A stretch of 64,000 nt of DNA from Tubulanus polymorphus (taxonomy: Eukaryota > Animalia > Nemertea). A model generated the notes under the pieces. It searched no databases and was not told the DNA's origin. It saw nothing but the letters and a program-made list of their open reading frames with translations. Every line of letters starts with the position of its first letter. Within the stretch, counting starts at the first letter, position 1. This document shows positions 9,122 through 64,000 of the stretch, piece by piece. Made by a program: the position numbers and the translations under genes. Location of the stretch: NCBI RefSeq assembly GCF_964204645.1, contig NC_134025.1:16157101-16221100 (forward strand), in the 5' to 3' direction.

Positions 9122-11300
9122 TTAACGGCCAGTGATATACCAGGAGCGCTCCTACAGAAACCAGCTAAGGACTACAAGAAGGGTGAACTTCAATTCTGGT
9201 TGAAATGTCGTAATCTGAAGTACAGAGCTGCTGACACAAAAGCTGTCTTGGTGAATAGGTACTGAATTCAATTTTATGTTGTTTATGTTATGTTTAATTT
9301 TTAATAAACTATATTGATTTATTTAAAGTCGTATTTTACTGTCGAACTCTACGGAGTTACCAGGATTTCCAGTCCTCCTTTTCTTTCGCAGAACTTCGTG
9401 AACTACAGGATGACTGCAAATGTTTCATTTTTTAGGTTTGAATTTAGATTTTCATGCAGGATCATAGGCCCTACACTTTCACGGGTCATTTTAGATAACA
9501 TTGCACATTTTAGACAGAACACATTGCACACCTTAGAAACTGCACATTTTAGAAATGCACATTGCACATTTTCATTTCTAGGGTCGAAGAAAATACGAAG
9601 ATCTCGCATAAGATTGTAGACCCTGACCCTCATAAGTGCTACTCCAATTTGAAGAAATCGAAGTGCACCTCCTGCAGTAGTAGCACTAATCCAAGAAACT
9701 TTACTAATACTAGCAGTAATATCAATACATTTAGTTCCATCAGAGAATGGGGAAACTCTGTTGTAAATATTCCAAACATATCATATGTTACGATCAGACA
9801 ACACGTAGAGACATCAGGAAGGAGGATTACAGGAAGTACATATATTGAAAAGACCTTACACAAAGGATATAAGTTTTTCTATGAGAACTATATTCATAAT
9901 GTATTTTCTGCTCGGGATAATGAAAAGAATTTGTGCTTGATTAAATGTCAGAGTTTTAGATCTCAAAAGAAAAATGAAGAGCCCCACAGATTACAGTGTA
10001 CATTAAACGATACCGGGTTTGTAGCAAATGCAACATGTTCTTGTGTAGCTGGGCTTAATGGTCATTGTAACCATATTGTTGGTTTACTTTTCTATCTAAA
10101 CCATTGCAAGTTTATGGAACTGAAGGAGTTCCAAAAACCTGGAACTTGTACTGACGAACCCCAGCAGTGGCATAGACCAAGAACAGCTGGTGTCAATGCT
10201 GAGCCTATCATGGGGTATTGTGTGCTAAAACCTGAGTACGAAAAACAAAAAAAAGGAGTGAGCAGTACACTTTATGATGCTAGAGGCCTAGCAATTAGGA
10301 GCAATGATGGTGCTCAACTACTTTTAGAGGAAATGAAAAAACTAAATCCTCATTCAGGTATTTGTAAAAACCTCAATCTCAAATCGGTTGGAAAGGTTCG
10401 AACAAGAATGGGCTTTGAAACTCCAGTTTGGTCTACATTAGCACACCAATTAGCAATTACTGAAGGTGACATGACACTATATACTGCAGTCTGGAATTGG
10501 AAGCAGACAAATATTACCCATATACCAAACTAACATTTCCAGATTTACCGTTATCAAACCCAGATGGAAAACTTAGATGTAATTTTGTGTTGCCAGATAT
10601 TTTGATACACGAATTAGAACCGAAAATTACCAATTTCCAACTGACTTTGGATCAGTGCATTAGCTTAGAAAAATCTACAGTTGGACAAAATTCAAACCCC
10701 CTTTGGTCAGATGCAAGAAAAGGATTGATTACTAGCAGTAATTTCGGTAGAATTCTTAGAAGAAAATCATATTCCATAGATTTTGCCAAGTCCCTTATGG
10801 TGAAAAAAGATCTATCTCATGTTCCAGCCATAAAGTACGGCAGGGAATACGAATCGAAGGCTGTAGATAGATATGTTCAATATATGCAAAACATAGGTAA
10901 TCCTGTCACTTGTATCGAATCAGGACTGGTGGTACATCCATATGTCCCCTGGCTGGGTGCCTCCCCTGATCGCAAATGTATCGATAGTAAAGTAGGCTTA
11001 GGACTTCTCGAAGTCAAATGTCCCTATTCTTTTCGGGACATAAAACCACAGGGAGCTTGTTCCAATCCAACGTTTTGCTGCGAAGAAAAAGGGAACAAAT
11101 ATTTTCTTCGAAAAGACCATGATTACTATGCCCAGATTCAAGGCCAGTTGGCCTTGACTGGGTTAACTTGGTGTGACTTTCTGGTTTATACAAGTAAAGG
11201 CATGTTGATAATCCGTGTTCCATTCGATCTTGAATTTTGGAATGAGGCGGTTGCAAAATTAGCAAATTTCTTCATTAGATATTTCCTTCCTGCCATGAAT
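9122..11300 (+). pseudogene. SAP-like + SWIM zinc finger + YqaJ/lambda-exonuclease-like protein of the ISL2EU element
   Basis: Exon ~9122-9258 (DIPGALLQKP...LQFWLKCRNL, donor ag|gt) and exon from ~9582; SWIM CSCVAG...CNH; YqaJ motifs ITSSNFG, YGREYE, WLGASPD, LLEVKCP, YYAQIQGQL; frameshift near 10497-10533. Confidence 0.82.
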
Positions 11301-12348
11301 GAAAATTTCTGTACAATCAATTATTACTCTTGTATTGGGGTACTTATTTTTGAAGCTGACTGGCATCGATGCAACGATTTCTTTTTTAGAAGACCAAATT
11401 GGCAGAGCGCCAAGTCTAAGATAAACAAAATTAGCCCAGGTTATAATCAAACGGCTAACTATAGCAACTGAGATATCAAATCGGTCAGCTAGGTCTTGCT
11501 CTAATAGACCAAGTCGTATCCTAGTCAAAAACAGAAAAAACTGGTCCCTAGGAGACAAAGCAAATGGACGACCCTTTTTTATAACTGATGCAGAGGGTTC
11601 TGATTTAGCCACTATTAAATTTTCACCAAGTTCTCCCGGGTTTACAAATTTTAGCACTGAATTAAAAGTCTCTATATTTGGAAAACCTGTATAGAATGTT
11701 ATATTATCAACACTAAGTCTATCAATAGTAAATCTGTTTTCTGATTGCAAACTTTCCACCTGAGTCTGGAGCTTTTCATTTTCTAGTTCAAGGTTAGATA
11801 TCCTGTTTAAAAGTTCTGTGTAATCATTATGAGTTATTGTAGTACTACATGACATCAAGTCCATGCCATTATCAGTAACAGTTGTTTCAAGCAAATCCGG
11901 TCCATCGTCCTCGAACAAAGAAATTGGCTCACACGTGGGGGCAAATTCTGAAGTATCCTCCGTTGGAACTACTGATGTACATGTAGTTTGAAAGCGCGAA
12001 TCACATAAGTTAACAAGTTTATTTGGTTTCCTCAGTTTTTTTGGGTTCCAGTTCGTGACTTTTCCTTCCCAACAAGAAAACACAGACGGAATGGCGGTTG
12101 ACTTAAGATATCTACGTCCTGAATAACTGGATACATCACGATAATCGTCCTTTTTGAAATGCTGCGAGCACACAAATGTGTTTTTCGTTATTTTAAACAG
12201 GTCTCCTTCATCACGTTTAATGCGGGCCAACCACTGTTTTCTCAGCCCAAGTTCTGATGGGAAACTGAAATATGAAACTACACCGTGGCCTTCAACATGA
12301 TAATATCCGGATTTGGTGCAATAAGGGACGCAGCAGCTTCTCCGACTC
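11298..12348 (-). pseudogene. THAP-domain + HTH transposase (DDE_Tnp_4/ISL2EU type), truncated at the start of the catalytic domain
   Basis: THAP CCVPYC...FSFP...QWLARIKR...VCSQHF...AIPSVF; coiled coil; FYTGFP; HTH LSPRDQFFLFLTRIRLGL...DLADRFDIS; stops right after IIDCTEIFI; probable small upstream exons (12541-12627; donor near 13200-13210). Confidence 0.85.
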
Positions 12349-30633: not shown

Positions 30634-31927
30634 AACTAGGGGTCCAGGGACACCATGCCCACTTGGGAAGTGGTTTCAAATGCTCAACAATCTAACAATT
30701 TCAATATTCAACGCCCCCTGGTGACCATTTACAAAAACCAACGACCTCGAAACTCACCACAATCATAGAACATGTCATGAACTACAACTTTGTAATTGAT
30801 CATGGTAACAAAATATGCCTAGGTACCAATATAATAAGGAAATACTAAGTCATTCTACTATTCAATGCCCCCTGGTGACCATATTCAAAACCCAATGACC
30901 TCGAAACTCACCACAATCATAGAACATGTCATGAACTACAACTTTGCAATTGATCATGGTAACAAAATATGCCTATGTACCAATATAATAAGGAAATACT
31001 AAGTTATTCTACTATTCAACGCCCCCTGGTGACCATATAGAAAAACTAATGTCCTTAAAACTCGCAACAATCATAGATGATGTCATGAGCTACAACTTTC
31101 CAATTGATTGTGGTTACAAAATATGCGTAGGTACGAATATTATAAAGAAATGCTAAGATATTGTATTATTCAACGCCCCCTGGTGGCCATATACCAAATC
31201 CAATTACCTTGAAACTCACCACAATCATAGAACACGTTATGAGCTACAACTTTCTAATGAGCTACAACTTTCGATTGTGGTAGCAAAATACGCTTAGGTA
31301 TCAATATAATGTGGAAAAACTTTTTCCCACTTACAAATGAGTATTGGTGACACCAAGATGGCCGCCAATTGCGTCATAATTGGCTGATGAAAAATACATG
31401 TCTCAGGTATAAAACATCCCTTTCCAAAGAATACCCATCACAAATTGCAATGAAAAAAAATGGCAAACCAGTAGGAAGCTACAGGACTCAGAATTCGGGC
31501 AAAAATTAACATTTTTGGGCACTAAAAAGGTCATATGACGGCCATCTTGAGTCCGACCGACCCAATTTTTGTTATGTTGATTGGCCCTGGGGGGATTCAC
31601 ATATATCCGAAAGACCAAGGTAATTGATCAAAGCGTCTTCAAAATTTCCCTCAAAAAGTTCAAAAATGTGTAAAAAGTGCTGATTTTGGCGAACAACAAT
31701 GGCTGCTAGTCGGCCATCTTGATTCTGACAGGGCCAGTTTTTGGGCTGAAGATGTGTCTAGGGTAGATACATGTGTAACCCAAATATCAAGACATTACCT
31801 TGAAGCATCTTCAAAACTTCCCAAAATAACTGGATTCCGTCTACGGACGGATGGACGGACGAACGGACGACGGACGAAAAGTGAACACATTAGCCCGCTG
31901 GGACTAAAGTCCCAAGTGGGCTAAAAA
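30634..31927 (+). mobile_element. Helentron-associated (HINE/DINE-like) non-autonomous element with 154-bp internal tandem units
   Basis: AACTAG start, four units (30709, 30863, 31017, 31171), (ACGG)n microsatellite, 3' hairpin GGGACTAAAGTCCC, A-run. Confidence 0.72.
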
Positions 31928-34900
31928 CGAAAATCTGTTAATCCAATGTATATAGTATATATAAAATAACAAGGGGCTAACGACGCTCACAAACTACTTA
32001 ACTTCAGTCGCTTACTTTTTCGTTATTTTTCATCCGATTTTGATAATCCAGGCATGATATGAAAGCTAATACCTTCCTGCTTCTAACGAAACTAATCCCG
32101 TTAATTTCCGATGAATAGTTCGTGAATTATATGTCTTTGGACGCGAAATTAGGGCCGAAATCGCCTGGACCGAAAATGCTATGACGCCGGTTTTTGTCGA
32201 TTTCGAAATTTAAAACGTTGAGTTCGACACGAAATCCTTCACCGATTTTGATGATTGTAAAAGATAAGCATTAATCTATGTTAATGCTGTATCTTTATCA
32301 TGAAACCTAAGAAAGATTATTCTATTATTTAGGCCTATTCAAATTTTCTGTCCACTACCACGTGGAAATAATAAGACCCACTCAAAATTGTGCATCACGC
32401 TTTGACCAAGAAATTGGTTCTAGGCTATAAATTTTACGACTCAAACGAATCTTTTCCTCAACAAAGCCGCTTTTAGTTTGATGCAAAATGAAATTTGCTT
32501 TTAAAATGTGTAACTAGGCCTAATCAAAAGGATATTTCAAAAGCAAACTTTGCCGGGCCAAGAGCCATATTGAATTCAATTTTTTCCGAACCATTATGCC
32601 TCTTTCATCATAACATTATTTATCCTATTTCAAGATCTTAGGCCTACAAGTAGAGAGAGCGCCTACGTTGGGTTCAAATCGGAATTTTAAGATTTATTTC
32701 ATTTAATTCCAGGTTTTCACTGTAGATTATCAAAGACATGTGGCGTTGTGGGAGTTCATGGTTGTTTGATAATCCATTATTTGTAAGTGTAAGGCTATTT
32801 GAGGGATTCGAAACCGACATTTTTAAATTTTGTAGCTTTATTACGTCTAATTCCAGATGTTTATCATGGCATGTTTCATTTTGGAGGTTTGTCAGCGAGT
32901 TGGTATGCTGTCGGCAGAAGTAGTATGATAATTCGTTTCATGTAAGTAAACAGCTATTTGAAGGATTCGAAACCGAAATCTGTATTGTGAATTTTTTAGT
33001 GGTATTTTGTTTGATTCTAGGTGAATAGGACATGATTCATTTTGGGAGTTTGTCCGCGAGTTTGTATACTGTCAAATGAAGTTTCTTCATCAATTTGTCG
33101 TATGTAAGTATCAATCTATAGGTTTTATAGGCCCTATTAGGGGTTCGATACAGAAATTTGGTGAATTCCTCAGATTTATTTTAATTTATTCCAGGTTGTT
33201 ATCAGAAAAATATGTACTTTATTTCATAGGTTAGTCTTTGATTGAAAACTAAAAATGGATGATAGTTCTAAATTTGATGTTGATTCACATGACCAATCTA
33301 GTAAGTATGGCTCACTCGTCTTTTAGAATAAGAGACCTATTGCATTTATCCTTCAATTCAAGTTGCTATACAACCTTTTATACAGATATTTACCTTATCA
33401 ATATAAACATGTATTTGCCATTAGCCATACAATTCAGTAAAACTGTTCCCGTCCAGATTTTGAAACATCATTTGACTCAATTTTTCCTCCTAGAAAATTG
33501 CTTTAGCTCATTCCAATGTTCGCAGTAAAAGTGAATTGTAGCATGTATGATTCCCATCCATCAATTTTGTCTTGTTTCGTATTTTTAGCGAAAATCTCGA
33601 AAAAGTCTGACGTCGAGGCAGGTGGTGGCCAGACAAAGACATATTCTTAATATAAGACGCATGGCATGACTTATTGTTCACTTTTTCACTTTTTCCTATC
33701 CTTATTTCGAAATTGAAGTATTGTAATAAACTATTGATTTATTTTTGTTGATCAACGCAACTAGTTTTGTTGTTTTCTTTCTTAATTTACATTTGAATTG
33801 GATGGTCATCTTGCGTAGGAGTCAGTTTGTCATCGAAGCAATACAGTCTAACTTGTTGACATCTCAGATGCAGCGGGGCAGGGCGGTCATTATATTGTGG
33901 ACTTATCCAAATAACACTTACACAGCCCAACGTGTTACAGTGTGTAAACTCCGTCGTACTCGGCATTATAAGACAGTGCGGAATTGAGTTTTAGTCACCT
34001 GAGCCCTCGGCTTGATTCGACCAAAAAGATCTTAAATGACTTCACAGAATTTGATTATGAGTCAAGGATTTTCTAAATTTCTGAATGCTTTCTCTGGTTT
34101 TAAGATCAATTCAAATTCAATCTTCAAAATATTTTATTGAAAGAAATTCTACTGAAGACAGATTTTGAAATGAAGAATATATCCAGGCAAATAATTATAG
34201 CAAAATCAACTGATGATCATCAAGGTGAAGTTTTCATTCATCTTCGGCTAATTTGTCTACCCCTGATGATTGAAGCATTTTGGTTACTCGCGCCAATTAG
34301 TCAGCAACAGTCGATTTTCATGCCATCTGACCTCTTTCCATCTGTAATTAAGCAATCAAATGTAAGAATTACTTAGGTAAGGAGCGAAATAATATATAGA
34401 TATCTTAGGAGACTATTTGAAATCATGAGTTTGTTGTGAAAATCTATTACTACAGTCTCGTAGAGCATAGACACCAAGCCACGTGGCATTGGTATTTTTA
34501 AGGCTATTCAGTTTACTCCAAAACAAGTCAATGATTAACATTAAAAAAGCTTCATATCAAGGGTATGTCGCAGGACTCATGACGCCCATGAATTATCATC
34601 CCATAATTACAATGAATCCAATTCTGCATGTACGTTAGCACGACTGATTACTAATCCAAATATTGCATTACAAAAAAAAATTACGCAAAACGTCAAGTAC
34701 TTACAGCATCTGAGACAGTTGCGCTTAAGTTAGCGTGTTAAGTTACATCTTTGGCTGTCAATGTCGAAAAAGCCTAATTTGAAACATACATTTGCGCACT
34801 GTGGTTTAATATTCCTGCAAGAATCCGCAAAGGAATTGAAGACCGTAGTGCCCAGTTCATTCCACGAATAATAGCTGGAAAGAAAGTAATCAAAATAAAT

Positions 34901-37734: not shown

Positions 37735-39450
37735 AACTAAACAAGTCAACAATTGAGGCCTCTAGGCTGTTAACGTAGTTTTTCGGAGGCCATAACTTGA
37801 ATCAAATCGACCCAATTTTAAAAAGGGTTCTGGCCCAAGTGATATCCTACCTGTGTACTAAGTTTGAAATGAATCGGTCAACAATTCAGCCTCTAAGCTG
37901 TTAACATCATTTTTCATGTCAGCCTCCTGGTGGCCATGATTTGAATCAAATCAACCCAGTTTTAACCCTTTCAATACCACATAGTGTCTCCGCTGCTGTA
38001 CCGAGGGAATTTAGGGGTTTATAGGGGTATATTTGAGGCTTCATAGAATAGTTACCAAGTTATCTGACACAGAAAAATTATATAGCATGTTGTTGATAAC
38101 TTTTGGGCCAACAAAGTAGACATAAATAATGTGGGTATAAGTGAACTTGAGGTCAAGGTCACATACTCCAAGATGGCCGCCATGAAAAAATTCACAAAAA
38201 CGTTTCAGATAAACTGCTCTGTCTCCCAGTGAAATGTACTGATCCATTCAATTCCAACTGGAATTGTATGCCATATATCCTTACTTTATGTAGTAAAAAT
38301 TTCAAAGCAATAGAACAAATAAAAAAATTTATTTTTCCACTCATTTACCCACTTTTCCACCGATATGTCAGAAGGCCGGATGTAAGGGGTTTCATTGGGG
38401 TATAATTTTAGGCCTCAGAAAATTGTTACCTATGTATTTGACACTGATACATTGTATACCATGGTGTTGATAACCTTTGGGCTTACAAATAAGACAAATA
38501 ATTTGGATATATGCGACCTTGAGGATGGACAGTTTCTGGTTCTTCATAATTGTTATTGATGTCTGTTGCCATGACAACCATATCAACGGGGTCTAAAAAA
38601 TTGTCACTGATTTCATTTTCATCATCAAAATCATAACCGGCACTATAAACCTAATTTCTGACTAAGCCTCATCATCTGAACTGCTGCTGTCATATTCGTT
38701 GTCACTCTGTTCACTACCAAATTCCAAGTCACCTGATACTGATAGATATGCCCTTCTGGAAGAAGGGTTAAGCGATACCGTATCACATACAGTACGGGTA
38801 TGCTAGCTTGCCAATTTGTACCGTATACCATACGATAGTGGTATTGTAAGGGTTAAATAGGGTTCTTGCCAAGGTGATAACCTACTTGTGTACTAAGTTT
38901 GAAATGAATCGGTCTCCAATTGCGGCCTCTAGTCTGTTAACGTCGTTTTTCATGTCATCCCCTGGTGGCCATAATTTGAATTGAATCTACCCAATTTTTA
39001 ATAGGGTTCTGGCCCAAGTGATAGCCTACTTGTGTACTAAGTTTGAAATGAATCGGTCTCCAATTGCGGCCTCTAGTCTGTTAACACCGTTTTTCATGTC
39101 ATCCCCTGGTGGCCATAATTTGAATCGATTCGACCCAATTTTTAATAGGGTACTGGCCCAAGTGATATCCTACTTGTGTACTAAGTTTGAAATGAATCGG
39201 TCGCCAATTGCGGCATCTAGGCTGTTAACGTCGTTTTTCATTTCGGCCCCCTGGTGGCCATAATTTGAATCGAATCGACCCAATTTTGTATAGGGTTCTG
39301 GCCCAAGTGATATTCTACTTGTGTTCCAAGTTTGAAAACAATCGGTCAACAATTGCGGCCTCTTGGCGGTTAACGTCACTTGCGGCGGCGTACTCAGAGA
39401 GGGGCAAATCTATATGCCCCCTCTCAACTCAAGTTGAGCTAGCTGAAAGA
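37735..39450 (+). repeat. Related HINE-like element with 144-bp tandem units and 3' hairpins, interrupted by piggyBac
   Basis: gaaatgaatcgg at 38901, 39045, 39189; terminal hairpins gagagggg...cccctctc and ctcaactcaagttgag. Confidence 0.65.
37966..38852. mobile_element. Non-autonomous piggyBac element
   Basis: TTAA TSD; TIR CCCTTTCAATACCAC / GTGGTATTGTAAGGG (14/15); splits one unit of a 144-bp tandem repeat. Confidence 0.82.
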
Positions 39451-43147: not shown

Positions 43148-43498
43148 CCTATAGTTTGCTGCTTAGCATTTTTAGGTCACAAGAAATAACAATTTATTAC
43201 AAATTCTATCAAACAGAAAACACAGCGCTCATCTTCTGCTAAAATTATTCAGCCCATTTTCATGTCAAACGTGCACGCGCCAAGCGTACCGCGATTTTAC
43301 ATGAATTAGCTCAATTACAACTTTATATCGCTGACAAAAGTAAACCAAAAACCGTTAAGCAGAGTAACTTATTCCAATGGAAAATTTTCAGCCCCATTCC
43401 CCAATTTTTCAGGTAGTTAGGAATATCACTGATTGACATAAGCTACGACTTGTTAGCATCCAAGACATGATCATCAATACAAGAACACTAAAGTTTAC

Positions 43499-43649
43499 CT
43501 CGGGTTTCACAAGCCGTAAAACTTTCTCAATAGTTTCATCTTGTAGACTAATAAAACCGACCCCATTTGGATCAAGTATATTCCAGGCCTTTGCCAACTC
43601 AATACGATCACGTTTCCGTTCTTCTTTAACATGTCTTTTTGACAATTTC
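43499..43649 (-). CDS. TPC-like gene exon: inter-domain linker, EF-hand 1
   Basis: cttcacag|g completes TGG from the previous exon; KLSKRHVKEERKRDRIELAKAWNILDPNGVGFISLQDETIEKVLRLVKPE|gtaaac. Confidence 0.85.
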
Positions 43650-43853
43650 CTGTGAAGTAATAATTGACGAATTTCAACAAACTTTGGATCAAAGTAAAAG
43701 ATTAATTGGTTCCCGTGGACATGTGGCTGTCTATAAGACCAGTTATGAAAATGCATCATACAATTGAGCCGAAGCGTTACTACTGGCATAGTTTTCTTTG
43801 TATTCGTGGAGTCTTACGAGAAAAATTATGTTTGATCGATAATTGATACTTAC

Positions 43854-46186: not shown

Positions 46187-47456
46187 AACTAGGGGTCCAG
46201 GGACACCATGCCCACTTGGGAAGTGGTTCCAAATGCTCAACAATCTAACAATTTCAATATTCAACGCCCCCTGGTGACCATATACAGAATCCAATGACCT
46301 TGAAACTCACCACAATCATAGAACATGGCAGCAGCTACGATTTTGTAATTGATTGTGATAACAAAATATGCCTCGTTACCACTTAAATATGGAAATACTA
46401 AGTTATTCTACTATTCAACGCCCCCTGGTGACCATATTCAAAACCCAATGACCTTGAAACTCACCACAATCATAGAACATGTCACAAACTATAACTTTGT
46501 AATTGATCATGGTAACAAAATATGCCTAGGTACCAATATAATAAGGAAATACTAAGTTATTCTACTATTCAACGCCCCCTGGTGACCATAAAGAATAACT
46601 AATGGCCTTAAAACTTGCCACAATCATAGATGATGTCATGAGCTACAACTTTGCAATTGATTGTGGTTACAAAATATGCATTGATACGAATATAATATAG
46701 AAATACTAAGATATTGCATTATTCAACGCCCCCTGGTGGCCATATACAAAAACCAATGACCTCGAAACTCACCACAATCATAGAACACGTTATGAGCTGC
46801 AACTTTCTAAATGATTGTGGTAACAAAATACGCTTAGGTATCAATATAATGTGGAAAAACTTTTTCCCACTTACGAATGAGTACTGCTGACACCAAGATG
46901 GCCGCCAATTGCGTCATAATTGGCATATGAAAAATACCTGTCTCAGATATAAAACATCCCTTTCCAAAGAATACCCATCACAAATTGCAATGAGAAATGA
47001 TAAACCAGTAGGAAGCTACAGGACTCAGAATTTGGGCCAAAATTAACGTTTTTGGGCACTAAAAAGGTCATAGGACGGCCATCTTGAATCCGATCGACCC
47101 AATTTTTGTTATGCTGATGGGCCCTGGGGGAATTCACATATATCCGAAAGATCAAGGTAATTGATCAAAGTGTCTTCAAAATTTCCCTCAAAAAGTTCAA
47201 AAATGTGTAAAAAGTGCTGATTTTGGCGAACAACAATGGCTGCCAGTCGGCCATCTTGAATCTGACAGGGCCAGTTTTTGGGCTGAAGATGTGTCTAGGG
47301 TAGATACATGTGTAACCCAAATATCAAGACATTACCTTGAAGCGTCTTCAAAACTTCCCAAAATAACTGGATTCCGTCTACGGACGGACGGACGGACGAC
47401 GGACGAAAAGTGAATGCAATAGCCCGCTGGGACTAAAGTCCCAAGTGGGCTAAAAA
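46187..47456 (+). mobile_element. Second near-identical copy of the HINE-like element
   Basis: Same termini and unit structure as 30634-31927; partial copies at ~44395-44670 and ~410-495. Confidence 0.72.
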
Positions 47457-47475
47457 TGATTAGGAAATATAATAC

Positions 47476-51099: not shown

Positions 51100-52472
51100 T
51101 TAACTGATAACTTGAGGCTTGGGCTGAAACCTTAATTTCATTGGCCTTTTCAGACTTTTTGAGGTCAGGGTCTAGGGAAAAATATTTATCGACGAAGTAT
51201 TCGACAAAATTTAAAGGGAAGCACTCTTAAACGATTACACCACAAAAAATTATTATCTTCAAATACGACAGACATTAAGCTTGATTAAACGGTACACATT
51301 TGCCTCGATCACAAAAATTCGTGGAAAATATTGGGAGTAGCCTACATTTGCGACACATGTAAAATAATCTTAAAGTTGGCAGTAGGCCTAATCCAAATGC
51401 TTATAACTCGCAAACTACGACGCGCGTCTACATGGAATTTTCAACACTGTATAAGATGCCTATTATCTTTCTTCAAAAGTACAGTTAGAATAAATCGGAT
51501 GACATCTTTTGACAACCTACTTTCCCACTTTTGAAGTGGGAAACTGCATTGATACATCATGGCGGCCGCCGATACGTGCCACATGAATCAAAGCATGCAA
51601 CGGCCGGCCCACCTCATTCAACAGAGTTTCTCTGTTCATTAACACACGGAAAAGAGAAGCAAATGTAGAAACTAGGCCTAGACATAAATAGCGTGTCACA
51701 TAAGGCCTAATGAATATCATTCGAAGCCAAATTTAGCGGATATTTCTGTTCTTGCTCATTAATCCCCAACATCACTCACCTTTGACAATATGGCGCGTCC
51801 TGCTCACTGCGACTGCTTACTGCCGCGGATGAAGAATTTGTCATCAATATTTCTTGCGACTGTGATCGAAGCTCCCGTACTCGAGTAAATTCGAGTGATA
51901 TAATCGGGCGGAAATCTCAGCTGGCCACTTAATTTACCCTGTTTTTACGGTAAACAAAAGCGACCGTCTGAAACTGCAAAGAATGATCCGGCCTTATCCG
52001 AATTCCAAAAGTTCTATAGTTCACTGAGTAGTTGTGGCAGGAATTTGTTTCACAAGAATTTGTTTCCGCCATCTTGTTTGCAATGCATATGCTCCCTATT
52101 CTGTTTGTAAACACAATCCACACGTGTGCACTACACTCGCTACAGTATCAACGCTCGCGGCTATAAACCTACAAACAAATATGCATCAAATATACCCGCC
52201 AACCCAGGCATCTTTTCTACGATTTTACAATATGAAAAATTATGAAATTGACTTTCTGCCGCCGCCCTTAATTCATCCATAGTTCAACTATTAACTTGTA
52301 GCGGATTTAATTAAAGAAATATCGTTAAGCTTTCAACTGATCGCACATGTGTGCTTTGGAAATGGAAATGAGTATGATTGAAAATAAAGATCGAAATCTG
52401 AATCATTCTATTTTCTTTCAAAAAGGCTGCATTGGATGATGTGATTAGGGAATAAAAAGAATTTTCTATGCC

Positions 52473-53525
52473 TTAGTATTCCTCAAAATCTCCACCCTGA
52501 TGGCCCATCTGGTCATGCAACGAATGCAACACATCTTCCAATTTCGAGTCAGGCAAGAAAACACGATCCCTTACGACACCACGATCCATGATACGTCGAT
52601 ATATCACACCATCCTTTAACAACAACTTTGGTATCTGTCTTCGGAATTTCATCTCACCAGGTCCATCCATCTGAAACTTCCTACCTCCCGGCAAATCTAA
52701 CTTCAACCATTTTAACACAGGATCCGATTCCTGAAGTTCAATCAACCGACTCAGATCTATCAAACCAAAAACCAAATCATCGAACGTATCATCCTCAACG
52801 TCCAGTTTAGCATCAGAAAAAGCAGATTCAATGTCACACGACAAAGAATTACATGCGGTTCTAGATACATCGGCGTCTATCATTTCCTTCCCACTTTGAT
52901 ACATTATCTATATGTTGTACATCGAGATTGCCTGCAACCATCTGTGAGACAAAGCATCCAGTTTCGCAGACTTGAGAATGTAACTCAAAGGATTATAATC
53001 CATTTTGACTAACACTTTACTCAAAAAAATAAAATCGTGAATCTTCTCTAACGCCCACTTAAGCGCAAGAAACTACAATTTATGTACTTCATAATTCATC
53101 AGCTTGATTTAATGACCGATTGGCATAAGCGATAACATGCATCTTCCCATAGTCACCCGTTTGATACAGTACTGCCCGAAGCCCAATTTGAGATGCGTCG
53201 GTATGAAGCTTGAACAGTTTAGAATAATCGGCAAACTGAAGAACAGGTGGCGACGTTAAAAACTCGTGAATACCATCAAAGGATTTCTGTAGTTCCTTGT
53301 TCCATTCAACAGGTTCTTTCTTTCGACCTTTCTCAGTATATCCTACAAGTAAATCCGTCAATGGTTTAGCTAACCCAGCGAAGCCTTTGATAAATTTCCG
53401 ATAGTATCCGCTAAATCCAAGAAAACTCCTGACATCGGCTATAGTTTTCTGGAACCGGCCATTTCCTAATTGCTTCGACCTTAGCTGGATCGGGTTCCAA
53501 CCTGGCGGCAGACACTTTGTGACAT
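52473..53525 (-). mobile_element. Ty3/Gypsy LTR-retrotransposon pol fragment (RT C-terminus, RNase H, integrase zinc-binding start)
   Basis: RSFLGFSGYYRKFIKGF, PPVLQFADYSKLFKLHTDASQIGL..VLYQ..VIAYANRSL, LHDQMGHQG. Confidence 0.85.
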
Positions 53526-54791
53526 TTTACTTTTCAATATTACTTATTAAGATTTCATTCTATAGTTATATAAATTTCTGGAATGAAAAAAATCAAAGTT
53601 TGGAACTTAAAGATGGTGAGTCATCAGCACTTCTCCTTTGCAATGAAGGATTCAATCCGATGTTGATTCTACTTGCTCAAAGGGCACAGTCCAATTAATA
53701 AAATATCATGTCATACTTTTTCTATGAAGTATTATGTTCACAAATTATAAATATGCTACTGATTATCATTTCATTCATTTCCTGAAATACTAATATATTG
53801 GCAATTTCAGGACATGCTCACTGTTATCTAGATGTGTGCAGGTGCATGTTCCTGACATCATCTCCGTTGAAAGCTTACTGTTTACAGTTTCTACTCATTT
53901 CAAAGGGCTTTTTTGATGATTTTTTAAATTAATGAATTCTAATGTATCGTAAATATGTTGGTGCCATCGTATATGATATGATAAACATATATGTTAGTGG
54001 GTGCACCATATAGCCGTGATATTAGAGGGAACAAATTATGGCATATCAATTGTACATATGGGCTAGAGAGCGCACATCTGCTTAGGTTTATCGCCGAGAT
54101 ACCGTGAAAAAAGCAACAGTGGGTTTGGTGAACTACGTAAACAAAGTGAAGAATAAATGAACGATTTATTTGTAAGGCTAATTAGTAATTTTTTTTGATC
54201 AATAACATCTCAAGTAATTATTCCTGTAGGAAGTAAGCATTGTGTTGATCAATCACGAAAAAATACAATTCATTGGTCATGTGCCCAAAAGCAAAAGCAA
54301 GAGCTTCGATGGGCAGCAATCAAACCCAGGCAAATATGGCGCCAGAGAGGTGATCCGATGTTTATTGGACAGTGTCTATCATCGAGAGGATTTCCGAGGT
54401 TGCGAATTCTCAATCGAATATCAAATCAAAGGTATAATATGAACTGGGGTTTTCTTTTCAATATTCTTATCATGCTTTCCTCACATTGATTTCATTCGAA
54501 CAAAACTTTTTGAAAAAATCGCTCAATAACATCGATCAATAATATAGCTTTTTGATCAAAGAATTTTTTTGTCAGAACGAAAACTTTTCCGATCAAACAA
54601 AAGTATATTGTTCGATCAAACAGAATTGTTATCATTGGAACAAAATTTTCTTGTCGGAACATAAAGGTTTTCGTTCGAACAAGTATATTGTTCGATCGAA
54701 GAAAAATTATCGTGGAACTAAAAAGTCATTTACTTATAATGAGTATTTTTCATTCAAAAAAAAATAATCTCACTTGAACGATTGAGTTATC

Positions 54792-55330
54792 TTATGAACC
54801 TGGGTTTTCATTGTATCCAATATCCATATTATGCCTTTTCACGTTGAAGCTCATCTTCCATGTTTCTGACCATGTACGGGACACAGCTAGTTGAGGTCGC
54901 TTTGGAAATTTACTCGGTCCTGTACATTTCGGGTTACTTAGTAAATCATTTATCAGGACAGTGAAGAGAAGAAAACTTAGGATACTAGCTCGCATGACTC
55001 CACTTGTTAGATCTACTTATTTCCAAGATGAGACAGTACCGTTGATTTCTGCCACCCGTTTTTGATCGGAGAAAACTGCTGAGCCCATTTAAGTGACCCA
55101 TCATTGATACCGTTTCCTAATAGATCGTTAGTAATCGCTGATCACCTGAGTACCTAATCAAATGCTTTTTCGAAATTCATAAAGACTATAAGGCCTCACA
55201 GTCGATTTTCTGGAGTCAAATAACCATCTGGTCGAGTTAACCATGGTTTCAAGTAGGCCCAATTGACTGTTGGTAGACCTTCCTTTTGTAAAACCGTCTT
55301 GACCGTTGAACAGGATACCCTTCATTTTCA
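54792..55330 (-). mobile_element. Degraded LINE RT fragment
   Basis: FEKAFD-like motif, then LLFTVLINDL and WSETWKMSFNV. Confidence 0.55.
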
Positions 55331-57143
55331 ATAGCATGGTTCGGCTGTGTCAGCATACACGCGATCGTGGTCGACACAGTATCCAGACATTGAACAAGAA
55401 TACGAACAAGGCTGTGCAGAAAACCTGTTATCGCTGCTTTGCAGCTATATTTTCATATAATTATTTCCTGGGTTGTTAAAAGAAAATGAAGAAAGAAAAG
55501 TGACACAAATGTTATTCATGAACGTAGAAAAATAACAGTTTATATGGTTACGATGTAAATGGATGTAGTAATATGTCTGGTTAAGGGTTTGTTTGATTGA
55601 AGGTCAAAGTTTGAAAGGGAATGTAGAGAAAATAGTTAAATGTGTATGAAAGTAGGTGTATGCAGTGTGCACCAGGCGAAAGGATTAGATTGCAAGGTGG
55701 GAGTTTGACTTATAACGTTGTTTTCATTTCCCGGAATACATAAAACCCGGAATTAAATCATAAAACCTGGAATCTTAAGTAAAGACAAGTAATCATAAAT
55801 AAAACCTGGACCTGCGCGTGTTGCCAGTGCTGTTTGAGGTGTGGGACAGCATTCAAAGGGCGGGGTTTTGAACGTCGCCGAATCACCGAATTCAGCTGAA
55901 ATTCAGTTGGATACAATGATTAATTTGATTTATTAAATTTACTGGCGAGACATTTTTACCACTATAATGATGTTACTTCACAGTGCGTATTAAAGCACAT
56001 TGGTAAATTGATCCTCCACGGTATAGATTTCGTTTATCTGTTACTTGTAAGGACTAATATATCATATCCATGTATAAATATTAGTTTGCCCACAGAGTCC
56101 GATCTAAGGAATAAGAGCCAAATGCACGGAGGCAAGCATATCTGAAATTTTGCTTGCCCCCTCCAAAAGCTACTTGCCCTTCTTCACAGGCAGTCAGATT
56201 GGTGGCACTATCATCCATTGTATCTAGTGGGAAAAAAGCTTTGTGACATGAAATTGCACTAGCCCCGGAGAAAATAATTGTCCCGCGCAATCGGGGACAA
56301 GTGCTTCGATCGGACCCTGTGGCCATGCGACGGCCCAATTGGGCCATGTCCAGCCAGGAGAATCTTCCTTTACTTTAGGAATTTAGTCTTTTATAAATCA
56401 AGAAATCACTTAGACTGGACAAATGATCATTAAAGCAGCAAAACAACATTATCTAACCTCGTATCTAGTTTAAAAAGTCAATCGTCCTTTCATCTCAATT
56501 CAAGGAAATTCATATTTTGTATTTATTTTGCCTTCATTTGGAACGGCATGGGTTCCATGTTTTATTTTACGATTACAGGTCTTAACTCCAGGTTTTATGA
56601 TTCCATTCCATGTTTTATGTATTCCGAGGAATGAAAACAAGACTTATAAGGGATGGTTAGCTTACTCCAGGAGGATTAGAATGGAAGTAGCAGGGATTGA
56701 ACATACTAATTAGGGTAAGGTTAGAAGCGGGTGAGGTCATGGTTTAGGAATGTAAAAAATGTACAAATTGGTCGTTTTTGGGTAAGAGAGGGAGGGAGAG
56801 AAAGAATGTAACCATAGGCAGAAAAAAAAGAAACAGTGTGGTCATATAAGAAGACTTGTTATTACTTGTATTTACTTGAAAAGGAAGACCCAAATAAACA
56901 GGTCAGGTCACAGAGGAACCAACTAGAAAGAACATCCAGCGGTACAGCCAGTCACCAACAATGGCGGCGATTGTAGTCCCACGGTGGAAAACTTCATGAC
57001 ACAACAACTGGTGGAGAATTTAGTGGCATAAAAAGTTGTACAGATTCTTGAGTACAATTACAGCAAGAGCACTTGTAAATTAGCGATTATCAATAGACAC
57101 TGTACCGCAAATGTTTAAAAAAAAACTTGAATCAAAAACTTAC

Positions 57144-57210
57144 TGGATAGTTCTCTGTAGTGAGGAGAGCAAAGAGTCTTAAGATTCCGTAACCGACGTG
57201 ATCAAAATTC
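57144..57210 (-). CDS. Two-pore channel (TPC)-like gene exon: domain I pore helix/selectivity filter
   Basis: ttttttcag|g...cca|gtaagt; translates NFDHVGYGILRLFALLTTENYP (TPC pore motif LLTTxNxP); ends in phase 0, compatible with the next exon. Confidence 0.85.
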
Positions 57211-58857
57211 CTGAAAAAAATTCTGTGTATTTGAATAAATGTTGCATTTCATAACGAATAAAGGACGTAACAAAAGAATTATTTTCTTTGATCCAAAACC
57301 GCATATCTTTTCATCTACAAATTCAAGATGGCTACCCTAGCAGTTATATCTGATGGCTGATAATCTCTATTTTCGATAGGGCTGATAGCGAATGTCCCCT
57401 TTGGCATAGAATTATCATAGTGGGATAGGAAGATAATTATCTAAAGACACAAACGAGATCACCCCTTGTATTTGAAATATGGTTATTTTTTATAAATGGC
57501 CATCGGGCCTTTAATGAAAATCAGATGACATCATGCTCATTCCATTTTGATCAATAATTTGGCCGTTTCCAATGTGGCTACCGCCGCCATTATCAGAAAT
57601 CACATAATGAATCATTACTTGGAATCCATATTGAATTTTCAAAAAACACAGAATTTCTTCATTCTTACTATAAAAAGTAACCGTGTTTTTCCACGGGATA
57701 CCCCTTGTTGGACAAGGCAGCGGACGCATGTTACCATTATCGGTACCTGGTAGGCCTATGAGATAATCTTTGCTTAACAAATTAACGATACTTCCAAATT
57801 AGAAAATGAAGAACCTACATAGGCAATCGATACACATTATGCATATTCTTGCTTTGGATTTTAAATGCAACTCGTGCATCTAAATTGTGATTTATGTGTT
57901 GAGAAGAGTTAACTAGAGGACCAAAGGTCCTGTGCTCTCGAGGTAGGTTTTTATAATATCGATGAAAACATGTTACATCGCTCATTCTGCTACTCTTTAA
58001 ATTATGCAGATCTGTTTGCTTTACCGACTGCCCTGGGCACTATGGTGAGACTTGACGCCTCGGACAGTGGCAGGCAGGAACAAATACGTCAGATCAATTT
58101 GTTTTGCTTTAAGCGTTAGAGTGAAATATGGCCGGTTATATGACGATGACGATGCCCACACGAAGACGGGATCGCTACGGACAAGCCATGTCCTGATGAT
58201 GAATGGCGATTCTTATATCCTAAACAATACTAGTTCACCTGTTCGGTGTTTTCTATATGCAAATAAGTATTGCGTAAAATTCATCCGAATATTCATACAC
58301 GTTTTATTCACCAAAATAAGCACAAAAAATTATTCCAAAACATTTCCAAATTAATATTTCTATTTCATACAATATAGATTTAGAATACAACTTTGGCAAG
58401 GAACATGTGTTACTAAACAGTCTATCGACGGGATGGGACTCTGTAACAAATGCGTATAATGAGGAATCTCCAGACGACGACTGTTGCTACGCTAAACGTC
58501 TGCAGTAAATGAATAAAAGCACCCCACATTGCCATACAACTTGGCAATAATTTCAGTCTAACTGTAAAAATTTAAAGCTTTCAAGACCATTGTCTGCCAA
58601 CTTTTCAAATTCAAAGACTCCCACTGACTTTCCCAGCACAAAACAAGGAATTTAAGACCGCTACGGTACCCACCCTTGGTGCAAGGCGCCCGCTCACGCC
58701 AAGTGATGTAGTCATTTGCATATTAATTCACCTTGTAAAATAAATTCATCCGAATGAATTATTGTTAAAATAAGTAATATGAAAAGTGGGGTTTCATACC
58801 AGAGGTCGGAGGTCGAGACACCACTCATCACCACAAGTAATATTTTTTTCCTTATAA

Positions 58858-61800
58858 ATGGGGGAGAATAAAGCAGAACAAATTGATGTTAATGAAAATC
58901 AATATTATTGTACATATTGTAAAAAATACATAGATAAATCTCAAAAATCACGCCATGAAAAATTTAAAAATCATATGAAAAATGTTATAGATTTTGAAAC
59001 TCCAGAAAATTCCAATGAAAGAAAAGAACGATTAGAAAATATGAATGTGGATGAAAGAAAATGTAATGTTTGTAATGAATTTATAATAAAAAGGAATTAT
59101 AAAAGACATCTCGAATCACATAAACACAAACAAAATTTAAGTAATAATGTTTTAGGAATAGATTATTTTGATGATAAACCAACTTCAGAAACTAAATCCA
59201 TTTCAAATAAACCTTATATGGAAAATGTTAGAAATTATATCGATTCACTAGAAATAAAAGATACAATTGAAATTTTAAAAATATTAAGTAGTAAAATTGG
59301 TCCTGCATCTATTATATTTAGATTTTTTAAAGGTACAACAATAGAAGATTATAGTAAATTTATTGAAATCATGGAAAAAATTACTAGATTTGGTACCAGA
59401 TGTTGAATTTCCAAAAATTAGTATCTCTGGGAAAGTAAGTTTTATCAAATCAGAAAATAAAATGGATTATGATATTCAAACACTCTCTGAAAAAATAATT
59501 TCAAAAACGCAAATAAAAGAGAAGTTAGAAAAAATATTTAGTGAATTTAAACGACATATTGAAGAAAGATATTTTGAGGGTTCTGGTTTAACATTGAATG
59601 AAATTATATTTTTAGATTTAAATGTTTATAATACAAAAATGATTAAAACATCAAAAAGTAAAACAATGCCTAAAAATGATTCAAACTTAACAACAGAAGA
59701 GGATATTAAAGGATAGAGTTATATCAAATTACCATTTACAACAAAAGCAGTAATAAATGGTCAAAATGAAGATAATAAATGTTTTCTATGGTCAATTATT
59801 AGTTGCTTACACCCAACAGAAGATATTACACATAGTTTTAGAATAACAGAGTACCAAAAATATGAAACATTATATAAAATTGATCAATATCCAGTAACTA
59901 TAAAAATGATTCCTAAAATAGAAAAAGTTAATAATTTAAAAATAAATGTATTCGAATTAATACAATTACCAAAGACAAAAGGTGAAAATATCAAAGATTA
60001 TACATTAGAAGCTTTATATTTAACAGAATATTATGATGATGAAAATCCTATAGATTTGTTATATTACAAAAAAGATGAAAATGAACATTATATGTGGAAA
60101 ATTGATTTATTCTTAAGAACAGAAAGTGATCATCATCATAAAATTTATCTATGTAGAAAATGTTTATCTAAATTTATGACTGAGAATACATTACTAAAAC
60201 ATAAAGAATTATGTGATAATAAAGATTTTTGCAAATTAATAACGCCAACAGAAAAAGATTATAAATTGAAATTTACTAATTATAAATTTAAAAATAGAGT
60301 GCCGTTTGTAATTTATGGGGATTTTGAATCGTTGAATAAAGAATTAACTGATCAAGATAGAAAAGAAATATATAATAAAAAGCAAATTTTAAAAGCAAAG
60401 GATATAGGAAATGAATTAAATGAAGATATAATTCAAGATCAACCAATTATAAACACAATTAAAAAAGTTCATCAAAGAGCTGCTGCTTATGGAATTTATA
60501 TAAAATCAAATTATCCTGAATTATATGTAAATCAACATATTTCTTTTAGAGGTGAAGATGTAGATAATAATTTTTGTAACAAAATAATTAAATTAGAAAG
60601 TGATTTTGCAAAATGATTAAACGAAAATTAAAAAAAATAGTTATAACAAAAGAAGATGAAATTGATTTTAAATGTGCAACTCATTGTTATTACTGTGAAA
60701 AACGTTTTCATTCATTTGATAAAAAAGCTAGAGATCATGATCATTTAAATTCAAAATATCGTGGAGCTGCTCATGAAGATTGTAATTTACAAGCGAAGAA
60801 AGTTAATTTCGTACCAATATTATTTCATAATTTATCGGGCTATGATACCCATCTATTTATAAAACAATTATCAGGAAAATTGGGCACAATTAATCAAGAA
60901 ATAGAAGAATATAATGCTATAAATGGTGCAAATTTAAGAAAATATGATTTTAAACTATTGGCTAAATCATCTGAAAATTATATTTCATTTCAATTTGGTT
61001 GCATGAGATTTTTAGATTCTTATAGATTTCTAGCAAGTTCATTAGATAATTTAGCAAAAAGTTTAGTTGATAATGATTTTATAATAACTCGATATTATTA
61101 CCCAAATGAACAAGATTTTAAATTATTGAGATTTAAAGGTGCAATTCCTTAATCATTTTATAAAACACATGATGATTTTAATGTAACAGAATTATCAAAA
61201 GATCAATTTTATGATCAATTAAAAGAGGAGTATGTGAAAGATGAAGTATTTATTAGAACATTAAATATTTGGAATCACTTTAAGATAAAAAATCATGGTG
61301 AATTAGTAGATTTATACTTAAAATCAGATGTTATGATAACGGCTGATATATTTGAAAAATTTAGAGAAGTTAATTTGAATCATTTTAATGTTGATCCTTG
61401 TTATTGCTTGCTACTCTAGTCCCGGTTTAACCTGGCAATTTGGTTTAAAATATACAAATGTAGAATTGGATTTATTAAAAGAACCAGACATGGTTTTATT
61501 ATTTGAAAAATCAATTAGAGGTGGAATTAGTGGTGTTATGGGAGATAGACATTTTAAAGCAAATGATGAATATAAATTATTATACATTGACGCCAATAAT
61601 TTATATGGTTGGGCAATGATGCAACCTCAACCATATAAAAATTTTATATCAACAGTAGTTGAAAATGATGATAAAACTGATTGGGAAAGCGCAATTATTA
61701 GTTTAAAAGATGAAGCACCAATTGGTTATTTCTTTGTAGTTGATTTGGAATATCCTGATAACATAAAGTTTAAAACAACAAAACTTACCATATTGCCCAG

Positions 61801-63913
61801 AACATTTAACCGTAGATGATAGTTATTTAAGTGAATACCAGAAGAAAATAAATCCGAAAGATCATGTTTTTACAGAAAAATTAATACTTACTAAAATAAT
61901 AAATACAATTATATTGTTCATCATAGAATGTTAAAATTTTATCTAAAACAAGGAATGAAATTAAAGAAAGTACATAGATATATTGAATTTAATCAATCGA
62001 AGTGGTTAGAAAAATATATAGATTTCAATACTCAACAGAGAACAATATCAAAAACAGATTTTGAAAAAGATTTCTTCAAATTAATGAATAATAGTTTTTA
62101 TGGTAAAACATGTGAAAATATTAGAAATAGAAATGATATTGAATTAGTAAATAATTCTGAACGATTGAGACATTTACAATCAAGTCCTAGACATTTAGGA
62201 AATAAAAGATTTGAAGATTATTTAACAGCAGTTAAATTAAAAAGAACGTCAATGAAATTTAATAAACCTATATTCATTGGTTCAACTGATTTAGAAGTAT
62301 CAAAATTATTAATGTATAATTTTAGTTATAATGTTTTACAACCACTTTTTGGGGAAAAGCATATTGAAATATTATATTTTGATTCTGTAACAGCTGACAC
62401 CCCAATATTATTAAAATGTAATAATAATATATTAATTAGAAGAATTTCAGAAATAATTCCAAAACAAAATGAATGTTATATTTCGTATGGTGAAAAAGAA
62501 TTAATACAAATAAATGAATTAATAGATGTTTGGACAAGAAATGGATGGAAAAAATTAAAGAATATTATTAGGCATAAAACAAATAAGAAAATCTATAGAG
62601 TTAGAACTAAATTAGGGTTTGTAGATGTTACAGAAGATCATAGTTTAATTAAACGAAATGGTGATGAAATAAAACCAACTGATATAAAAATTGGAGATGA
62701 ATTATTACATAAAAGATTTTTCCAAAGAATGAATCATATGTCATTTGATGAAATAATTAATAATATTTATAATATAGAACCCGAAACATTAGAAGAAAAA
62801 GAATATTTTATCAAAGGATTTTTTATGGGAGATGGTTCAGCAGGTGTGTATAATTATGTTAGTGGAACTCAATATTGTTGGTATTTATGTAATCAAGATT
62901 TGAAAGTATTAGAAAGAATTAAGAAATTCTGTGAAGAAGTTTATTCACATAAAACATTTAAAATCATAGATGTTATGAAATCATCGCAATGTTATAGAAT
63001 ACACATGAATAATACTAAAGACTAAAGATTTTGCTATGAAATATAACGATGAATTCTATATTCATGCAATAGTTAAAAGTAATACTTCAACTAAAGAAAA
63101 GATAGTTCCAGATTATGTATTAAATGCAAAATATAATTTAAGAAAATGGTTCTTCATTGGATTCTATGCTGCAGATGGCACTAAAAAATTTACAAAACAG
63201 AAAACTATATCTTTAAACCAAAAAGGAAAAGTTGCTATATCAGGATTGAATCTATTATGCAGTTCATTAGGTTTTGATATGAATATTGGATTGATTAAAT
63301 CTAAACCAAATTGCTTTAATTTAAGCCATGTAGAAAAAGAATTAACTGAAGATTAAAGGTTAAGATTTATTCGAAATATATAACCCAACAGACTATGTTT
63401 ATGATTTATCAACAGATGATGGAACATTCAATTCTGGATTCCCATTAATCCTCAAAAATACTGACGCGTACATACTAAAAATCAAGACAAATGACATAAC
63501 AAAAGACTTAAAAACATTAAAACTTCATTTTGATTTTAGCATTTATCCCAAAGATCATGAACTATTTAGCAATGATAATACAAAGATTCCTGGTAAGTTT
63601 AAAGATGAATTAGGGGGCGATGAAATGATTGAATTTGTTGGGATAAGAAGTAAAATGTATAGTTATAGAACAAAAGATCATGAAGCTAAAAAATTATAAG
63701 GAATAACAAAACATGTGGTTGATAAACAGATAGAATTTCAAGATTATATTAAGTGTTTATAACTCAATTGTAATGAAACACAAAATGAATTGTTTAAGAT
63801 CAGAAGATCATGAGAGGTACATTAATGAAGTTGAAAAAACTAGTTTGAATCCATTTGATGATAAAAGGTGTATTTCAGATGATGGTATAAAAACATTACC
63901 TTATGGTTATTAA
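58858..63913 (+). pseudogene. Polinton/adintovirus-type protein-primed DNA polymerase B (pPolB) polyprotein gene, disrupted and intein-containing
   Basis: Intronless, very AT-rich. In order: two C2H2 fingers, vOTU-like region (NEDNKCFLWSII...EHY), ExoI FVIYGDFES, EndoVII/HNH-like insert CYYC...RDHDHLNSKYRGAAHEDCNL, ExoII FHNLSGYD, ExoIII YLKSDV, motif A LYIDANNLYGWAM, motif B KLMNNSFYGKT, motif C YFD|TDA, GKFKDE, RSKMYS, C-terminal DDKR...TLPYGY*. Multiple stops and frameshifts. Confidence 0.92.
62384..63459 (+). mobile_element. Intein with LAGLIDADG homing endonuclease inserted in pPolB motif C
   Basis: Starts SVTADTP (block A) after YFD; block B VDVTEDHSL; LAGLIDADG motifs FIKGFFMGDGS and FFIGFYAADGT; block F DYVYDLSTDDGTF; block G LILKN followed by +1 Thr (TDAY). 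Two frameshift regions (~63014-63027, ~63354-63363). Confidence 0.92.
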
Positions 63914-64000
63914 AATGGATCAATATCATCAAACTCGAAATCACTATTGGTTTCTTCTTTTTCATTTAATTGTTCTTGTATAATTTGTTTAGGTTCTTCC
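63910..64000 (-). CDS. 3' end of a convergent ORF of the virus-like element (runs off window)
   Basis: Open frame EEPKQIIQEQLNEKEETNSDFEFDDIDPF*; its stop overlaps the pol stop codon (shared TTAA). Confidence 0.55.
   Translation of the reverse strand, partial: EEPKQIIQEQLNEKEETNSDFEFDDIDPF

Follow-up and report, generated by a model that had tools for sequence, protein, structure and literature searches.

A broken pol-c-type intein in a Polinton-type DNA polymerase gene of a likely animal chromosome

Results

The window, by which we mean the whole analysed stretch of 64,000 nucleotides, changes composition towards its right end: GC content is 36.5% in the host flank and 23–27% from about 58.75 kb to the window end, where an AT-rich element carries a decayed DNA polymerase gene whose catalytic motif C is split by an intein (Table 1). 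About 1.6 kb to the left of the element lies a host exon with four matches, all of them calcium channels (weak, E 0.04), and an exon encoding an EF-hand near 43.5–43.7 kb (43409–43813, minus strand) has the same orientation. We take these two exons to resemble a two-pore channel; if the channel exon encodes the first pore of a two-repeat channel, earlier exons would lie to its right and the element would be intronic. A cluster-atlas search with the EF-hand exon returned EF-hand clusters only, all under 0.9, which we treat as a lead.

Table 1 Coordinates of the element, its polymerase gene and intein, and the neighbouring host exon (a slash in motifs marks the insertion point)
Feature	Position	Strand	Evidence and remarks
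Host exon, cation-channel pore helix	57144..57210	-	AG/GT ends; weak Cav3 pore-helix match, E 0.04
AT-rich multi-copy element	58750..64000	.	GC and depth step; left edge approximate, right end beyond the window
N-extein, Polinton-type protein-primed family B polymerase	58858..62383	+	Pfam; collinear with P0464-P0466; several stops and frame changes; ends IEILYFD at 62383
HNH/endonuclease-VII insert within N-extein	about 60664-60792	+	Pfam Endonuclease_7
LAGLIDADG intein, pol-c type, two-motif homing-endonuclease domain	62384..63459	+	Three frame pieces, broken; starts SVT at 62384
Intein frame pieces	62384-63025, 63009-63356, 63364-63459	+	64%, 65% and 61% identity to intact P0001
N-terminal splicing (Hint) region	62384..62700	+	Ser1; block B TEDH 62630-62641; TIGR01445; PI-PkoII match
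LAGLIDADG endonuclease region	62816..63353	+	Motif 1 GFFMGDG 62816-62836; motif 2 GFYAADG 63159-63179; fold of P0293 model
C-terminal splicing region	63364..63459	+	Block F YVYDL 63394-63408; terminal Lys-Asn, Asn ending at 63459; motifs, relatives
C-extein, broken	63460..63913	+	Begins with +1 Thr (63460-63462); identity to empty relatives

The flank also contains a nearly intact transposon with convergent genes of THAP/transposase-HTH and YqaJ type by Pfam (9553–12347), as well as hAT and reverse-transcriptase (retroelement) remnants. THAP is described as animal-restricted in the accessible part of 10.1101/2021.02.01.429122. The THAP transposon and the spliced channel exon indicate that the host of the element is likely an animal, as the original prediction had it, and integration and decay would suggest residence in the germline. 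Repeats occur elsewhere in the flank: a duplicated 1.3 kb repeat with 154-nt units (30634–31930 and 46187–47459, 92%), a 144-nt tandem repeat (38853–39377), a region moderately repeated in reads (57.6–58.8 kb) and a 19-nt stretch of the flank (58093–58111) that recurs inverted, at 95% identity, in the start of the polymerase gene (58869–58887).

The polymerase gene (58858–63913, plus strand) is split into 11 open pieces and shows about eight changes of frame along with three in-frame stops; it carries at least ten inactivating breaks, two of them within the intein. Its N-extein comprises N-terminal zinc fingers, the HNH/endonuclease-VII insert, and exonuclease and palm motifs. Pfam recognised zf-U1, Endonuclease_7 and DNA_pol_B_2 (PF03175) on the pieces, the latter two below cut-off (23 bits versus 25.8 for PF03175), and PF03175 scored above cut-off in the intact relatives P0001 and P0124 (proteins in our searches are cited by P number), supporting the predicted Polinton-type, protein-primed family B polymerase (pPolB). 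The proposed joining of the two exteins into a single pPolB also held: intact P0464–P0466 (1319–1365 aa) are collinear with the gene from 58882–58900 onwards and lack the stretch occupied by the intein, while P0463, contiguous through motif C, is 90% identical over 163 aa before the site and 80% over 79 aa after it. For the C-extein, identity is 73–77% to P0463, P0464 and P0466, all of them empty, and reaches 79% with P0465 over 101 aa. A profile search with the exteins matched no solved structure. Beyond the gene, the end of an acidic open frame converges on the polymerase (63914–64000, minus strand); it is likely the element's next gene and has no Pfam match.

A pPolB with an HNH insert is the Polinton polymerase type in the available portion of 10.1101/2023.08.22.554363, from which we also took the defining Polinton features, namely genes for a capsid, a protease, an integrase and a packaging ATPase, together with terminal inverted repeats and a target duplication of 5–8 bp. 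The element extends past the window end, and within the window this copy showed neither capsid or integrase genes nor a terminal repeat or target duplication. Read depth about doubles at 58817–59217, which is compatible with a terminal repeat; one end of the element lies in the window, where no partner was found. More distant pPolB relatives (33–37%) on 14–17 kb IMG/VR contigs are accompanied by an integrase and an A32 ATPase in all four loci examined and by a double-jelly-roll capsid gene in two of the four. By sequence, the window element is likely a Polinton.

The intein is inserted exactly between D and T of pPolB motif C (YFD/TD), and its boundaries are fixed because empty P0463 reads uninterrupted across this motif. 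The position matches the pol-c site, as had been proposed, defined as YGD/TDS in the accessible part of PMC549080, and trees place the insert with pol-c inteins. At 1076 nt, the insert is not a multiple of three; a frame change near 63010–63030 and a stop plus frame change near 63354–63364 distribute it over three reading frames, so the predicted length of ~356 aa holds only as an approximate size, close to the 354 aa of the intein in P0001. Class 1 inteins are characterized by an N-terminal Ser, Cys or Thr, block-B Thr/His, block-F Asp, a terminal Asn and a +1 Ser, Thr or Cys (PMC7765530, as far as available). The claim that all splicing blocks are present was right for Ser1, TEDH, YVYDL, the terminal Asn and the +1 Thr, but the penultimate residue is Lys instead of the usual, assisting His; among eight intact relatives this position is His in five, Lys in two and Ser in one. 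Ser1, the block-B His, the block-F Asp, the terminal Asn and the +1 Thr are kept in the window copy and in 8/8 intact relatives, in which the insertion is also in frame; the window copy's own frame is broken. Both predicted LAGLIDADG motifs were found, and their acidic residues are retained in all eight relatives checked.

Profile searches covered the window pieces and intact relatives. On the first window piece, the NCBIfam model TIGR01445 (intein_Nterm) scored 33.4 bits against a cut-off of 24.5, and the best PDB match of the window intein was itself an intein, PI-PkoII (E 5.6e-5). The Pfam models fell below cut-off on the window pieces (Intein_splicing, PF14890, 23.6 versus 35.8; LAGLIDADG_3, 12.8 and 16.0 versus 22.5; Hom_end, 16.7 versus 21.1), and the 32-aa C-terminal piece matched no HMM. 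In intact relatives, however, LAGLIDADG_3 scored above cut-off (P0001 30.1, P0003 34.2, P0434 41.8), as did Intein_splicing (P0003 42.4, P0419 38.9). The suggested scan for Hint and LAGLIDADG domains was positive for TIGR01445 on the window itself and for Pfam LAGLIDADG_3 and Intein_splicing in relatives alone.

A structure model of the intact relative P0293 (pLDDT 91, from a 48-row alignment) had endonuclease-bearing inteins as its top Foldseek matches, the best being the TliVMA intein-endonuclease 7qsu (E 1.7e-17, TM 0.62), and its LAGLIDADG part superposed on I-DmoI with 2.6 Å rmsd. The model and the intein profiles indicate a Hint fold, and the two LAGLIDADG helices with their acidic residues and I-DmoI-like fold are those of a predicted homing endonuclease. 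Taken at the level of sequence, the coordinates, motifs, TIGR01445 score and empty homologues confirm the claim of a real intein in motif C at the pol-c site; this copy can neither splice nor home.

Other identities for the insert were rejected: a chance motif match by the TIGR01445 score and the PI-PkoII E value, a Hedgehog-type Hint domain by the presence of both junctions and a nuclease in an insert that interrupts a catalytic motif, and a group I intron by the in-frame insertion in relatives. An insert that is retained, or that merely cleaves the polymerase in the manner of the HNH and VSR inserts of pPolB2, would agree with the tolerance of Polinton pPolBs for nuclease inserts (10.1101/2023.08.22.554363, available part) and with the missing penultimate His; the catalytic motif itself is split, however, and the five splicing residues persist in all eight intact relatives; we regard such a non-splicing domain as very improbable, the least likely of the alternatives weighed.

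Intact and intein-free forms, sought on the suggestion of the original prediction, were both found in other sequences. With the first window piece as query we obtained 211 proteins, the top match being P0001, a pPolB of 1693 aa whose frame is intact and in which the intein occupies the same position (64% identity); P0005, P0124, P0434, P0003 and P0419 are likewise intact pPolBs with inteins. We distinguish at least six lineages of intein-bearing pPolBs, the window's own and at least five others with intact members. The window lineage comprises P0001, P0306, P0324 and P0359 (61–81% identity on the intein pieces); the others are P0003 with many fragments, P0004/P0124 (a 121-member cluster), P0298/P0434, P0005, which is a distant polymerase type, and P0317/P0326, a separate lineage. 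P0003 was closest for 54 of 110 new rows, many of them on contigs of hundreds of kilobases.

Empty sites predominate among the best 120 of 5082 extein relatives, in which motif C is empty in 113, filled in one and irregular in four, two sequences ending before the site; the closest exteins in this set (90% and 78%) are empty, P0463 being the nearest. Filled P0124 and empty P0127 have exteins 99.5% and 98.3% identical, differing besides the intein at only 3/574 and 3/174 aligned residues. A search of 50%-cluster representatives gave 142 new matches in the best 150, none with a pPolB extein, and the family is therefore rare in that library. Viral contigs scanned with P0464, P0001 and P0434 gave no match; intein scans of viral contigs gave only 30–55% among the matches listed and no long open reading frame like empty P0127, and the long open reading frames of 24 pPolB loci held no intein signature.

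Several observations concern the wider family. In a cluster comprising P0293, P0405, P0407, P0412, P0447, P0448 and P0457, many predicted proteins begin 11 residues ahead of the intein, and the ends of P0293 and P0406 lie 4 residues beyond it; these nearly intein-only frames, whose flanks are unlike those of P0003, are possibly a derived or non-autonomous form, or belong to a different host gene. The intein family of the window is also represented in topoisomerase II, inserted at a D/T junction (P0157 has it in two places), and in PolB at a second site, N/S (proteins with these other sites are P0006, P0078, P0079, P0083, P0084 and P0157, and P0138–P0150); the related PolB inteins number up to three per polymerase. 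Two close pPolB relatives, P0467 and P0472, are labelled Bartonella sp. and Sulfurimonas sp. and are likely eukaryotic-element sequence in bacterial bins. A cluster-atlas search with P0001 gave pPolB clusters at 0.84, again a lead only.

Phylogenies, all of them quick trees, addressed the source of the intein. For the broad intein tree, 62 rows remained once inteins shorter than 300 aa, near-duplicates (80% identity) and representatives of lower rank had been dropped; the extein tree had 49 rows, 34 of them empty exteins (33 from the best 120 listed, plus P0127). The main pPolB inteins form one clade (5/5 rows in one tree; 10/12 in another, SH-aLRT 100), and its sister group is made up of PolB inteins that share the C-terminal block, several on IMG/VR giant-virus MAG contigs (support 89). 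The inteins of P0317 and P0326 nest among other PolB inteins, apart from the main clade; their exteins are typical of invertebrate-like pPolBs, and their pol-c intein belongs to a different giant-virus subgroup. A single origin of all pPolB inteins was rejected (p-AU 0.027, a modest result from an LG+G4 quick tree run after a similar tree had been seen), and P0317/P0326 likely represent a second, separate invasion. The trees support the kinship of the intein with giant-virus inteins; its probable source is the pol-c inteins carried by large DNA viruses, with at least two acquisitions likely.

Movement between polymerases is also likely. Compared with six other main-clade inteins, that of P0005 is 41–49% identical while the exteins share only 20–32%, which suggests transfer of the intein between polymerase lineages; this reading draws on identity alone, because a position of the P0005 intein as mere sister of the others was not rejected (AU p 0.55). 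We assumed the label VSR for P0005; no Pfam match at E 0.01 supported it. On these sequence comparisons the intein has likely moved between distant pPolB lineages. On the extein tree the intein state changes seven times, at least three of these changes being forced by strongly supported branches, with gain and precise loss indistinguishable.

The intein might instead be a passive passenger that made a single entry into the polymerase, during a free viral stage or within some other host, passed down with the element thereafter, disappeared precisely from many lineages, and does not home in animal nuclei. For the HNH-type polymerases, intein and extein distances are indeed similar (46–58% versus 34–58% identity), the nearest kin of the window intein (P0001, P0306 and P0324) fall in the window's own broad extein clade, and no intein-skipping joint, as expected of an empty allele in this organism, was seen among 15 of 154 joints listed. 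Nevertheless, the acidic LAGLIDADG motifs have stayed intact in every relative checked, the P0124/P0127 pair is about 99% identical yet differs in intein state amid a large majority of empty exteins, and the P0005 intein is far better conserved than its exteins; we regard a passive passenger as unlikely.

To gauge copy number we turned to reads. Four runs from a single study contain the stretch, and a second study provided raw DNA under the same species label (X5); copy numbers were read from X5, the contig depth sums of X1–X3 being left out, and X1 is possibly the source sample. In X5, single-copy-like flank bins have depths of 4–8, extein bins 244–304 and intein bins 232 and 130, placing intein and exteins at roughly 20–50 times single-copy depth, a value that by itself is no proof of chromosomal place. 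From the ratio of intein to extein depth, about half or more of the close copies bear the intein. The window copy departs from nearly all X5 reads at many positions of the element and is therefore a privately decayed member of its family.

These data also bear on whether the AT-rich segment is an artefact or contaminant, derived from a protist, a symbiont or a free virus and misjoined to animal DNA. The step in GC content is sharp, and several of the closest exteins (best 120 of 5082) come from short contigs of no known origin; X1 contigs (depth 43–48, 0–1 differences) tile the flank over 52112–58576, and none bridging flank and element appeared among 24 of 6297 pieces listed. Against this, the number of inactivating breaks is as expected for a neutrally decaying integrated copy, the family is at high depth in the independent X5 sample and in three runs of study P1 (two samples), the window copy is a private variant within that family, and the named animal sources of extein relatives among the best 120 of 5082 are scallop, pearl oyster and beetle, with the two bacterial labels as the exceptions. 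We consider a misjoin very improbable.

Discussion

We consider it probable that the window contains a broken Polinton-type polymerase gene in an animal chromosome, that the intein of its relatives would splice, and that its nuclease likely homes into intein-free genes. The closest known systems are the pol-c inteins of giant-virus and archaeal PolB, such as the Mimivirus PolB intein (PMC549080, available part), which share the D/T insertion point, the class 1 residues and LAGLIDADG motifs; identity between the window intein family and many PolB inteins is 35–44% among the matches listed. In contrast to these, the host here is a protein-primed polymerase (PF03175 rather than PF00136), the residue before the Asp varies among pPolBs (YFD, YGD, YMD, YSD, YLD and ASD), and the gene belongs to a multi-copy nuclear element of a likely animal. 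TliVMA (7qsu), PI-PkoII (2cw7), PI-PfuI, PI-SceI and I-DmoI have folds like the P0293 model but are only 12–22% identical and differ in host protein and target.

Polinton/Maverick pPolB2 polymerases with HNH or VSR inserts (10.1101/2023.08.22.554363 and PMC11071308) are of the same polymerase type and share the HNH/endonuclease-VII insert. In the accessible portions of both sources, however, the inserts are described as nuclease domains with no mention of a splicing domain, whereas here a complete Hint and LAGLIDADG unit splits the active site; the terms intein, LAGLIDADG and homing have no occurrence in the main text of the former, and the latter speculates, in its available part, that nuclease inserts in pPolB stem from intein invasions. 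Nuclear inteins of Anaeramoeba, fungi and algae, and viral inteins, offer another parallel, with a viral source and possible non-allelic spread proposed (PMC10710043 and PMC5784728); those covered in the available text are from unicellular eukaryotes, fungi, plastids and large DNA viruses including iridoviruses, and no animal genome or Polinton is among them. The word 'intein' does not occur in the portions available of PMC13215967 and PMC11131425. In the literature covered, which lies outside subscription journals, Repbase, InBase and supplements, we found a splicing intein described neither for Polinton or protein-primed polymerases nor for any animal genome, in keeping with the earlier expectation that this combination is not well described. 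Viral inteins are already known, and what is apparently new is the host class, along with the intein's residence in an element that a likely animal genome carries in many copies.

How might such an intein persist? In intact elements, Ser1 would undergo an N–O shift, the +1 Thr would attack and the terminal Asn would cyclise; the rejoined exteins would restore the catalytic Dx-TD motif and leave the element able to replicate, so that intact elements would pay little for carrying the intein. Other copies, whose motif C DNA is uninterrupted, would be cut there by the nuclease and converted when the break is repaired on the template of a filled copy. Since the Polinton family is probably dispersed, with tens of copies per nucleus, homing could take place between non-allelic copies and not only in co-infections; contact with giant viruses would be the supply of the intein. 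The whole of this scheme, in which Polinton polymerases captured a pol-c intein at least twice and the intein splices in animal cells and homes among dispersed copies in a metazoan germline, is one that we put forward tentatively, as a possibility of somewhat less than even standing.

An intein in a multi-copy nuclear element would be an exception to the statement, in the accessible part of PMC8529194, that inteins are absent from metazoan genomes, albeit one housed in a virus-like element instead of a host gene, and it would imply that the element's life cycle within its host includes protein splicing. PMC11071308 speculates, in its available text, on intein invasion of pPolB, of which this would be an actual example. 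The intein must have encountered the two genes within a single cell and would in that way link Polintons physically to giant viruses, which bears on the open question of a possible infectious stage and helper viruses of Polintons. Filled and empty copies in one genome, if present, would make non-allelic homing measurable from long-read assemblies.
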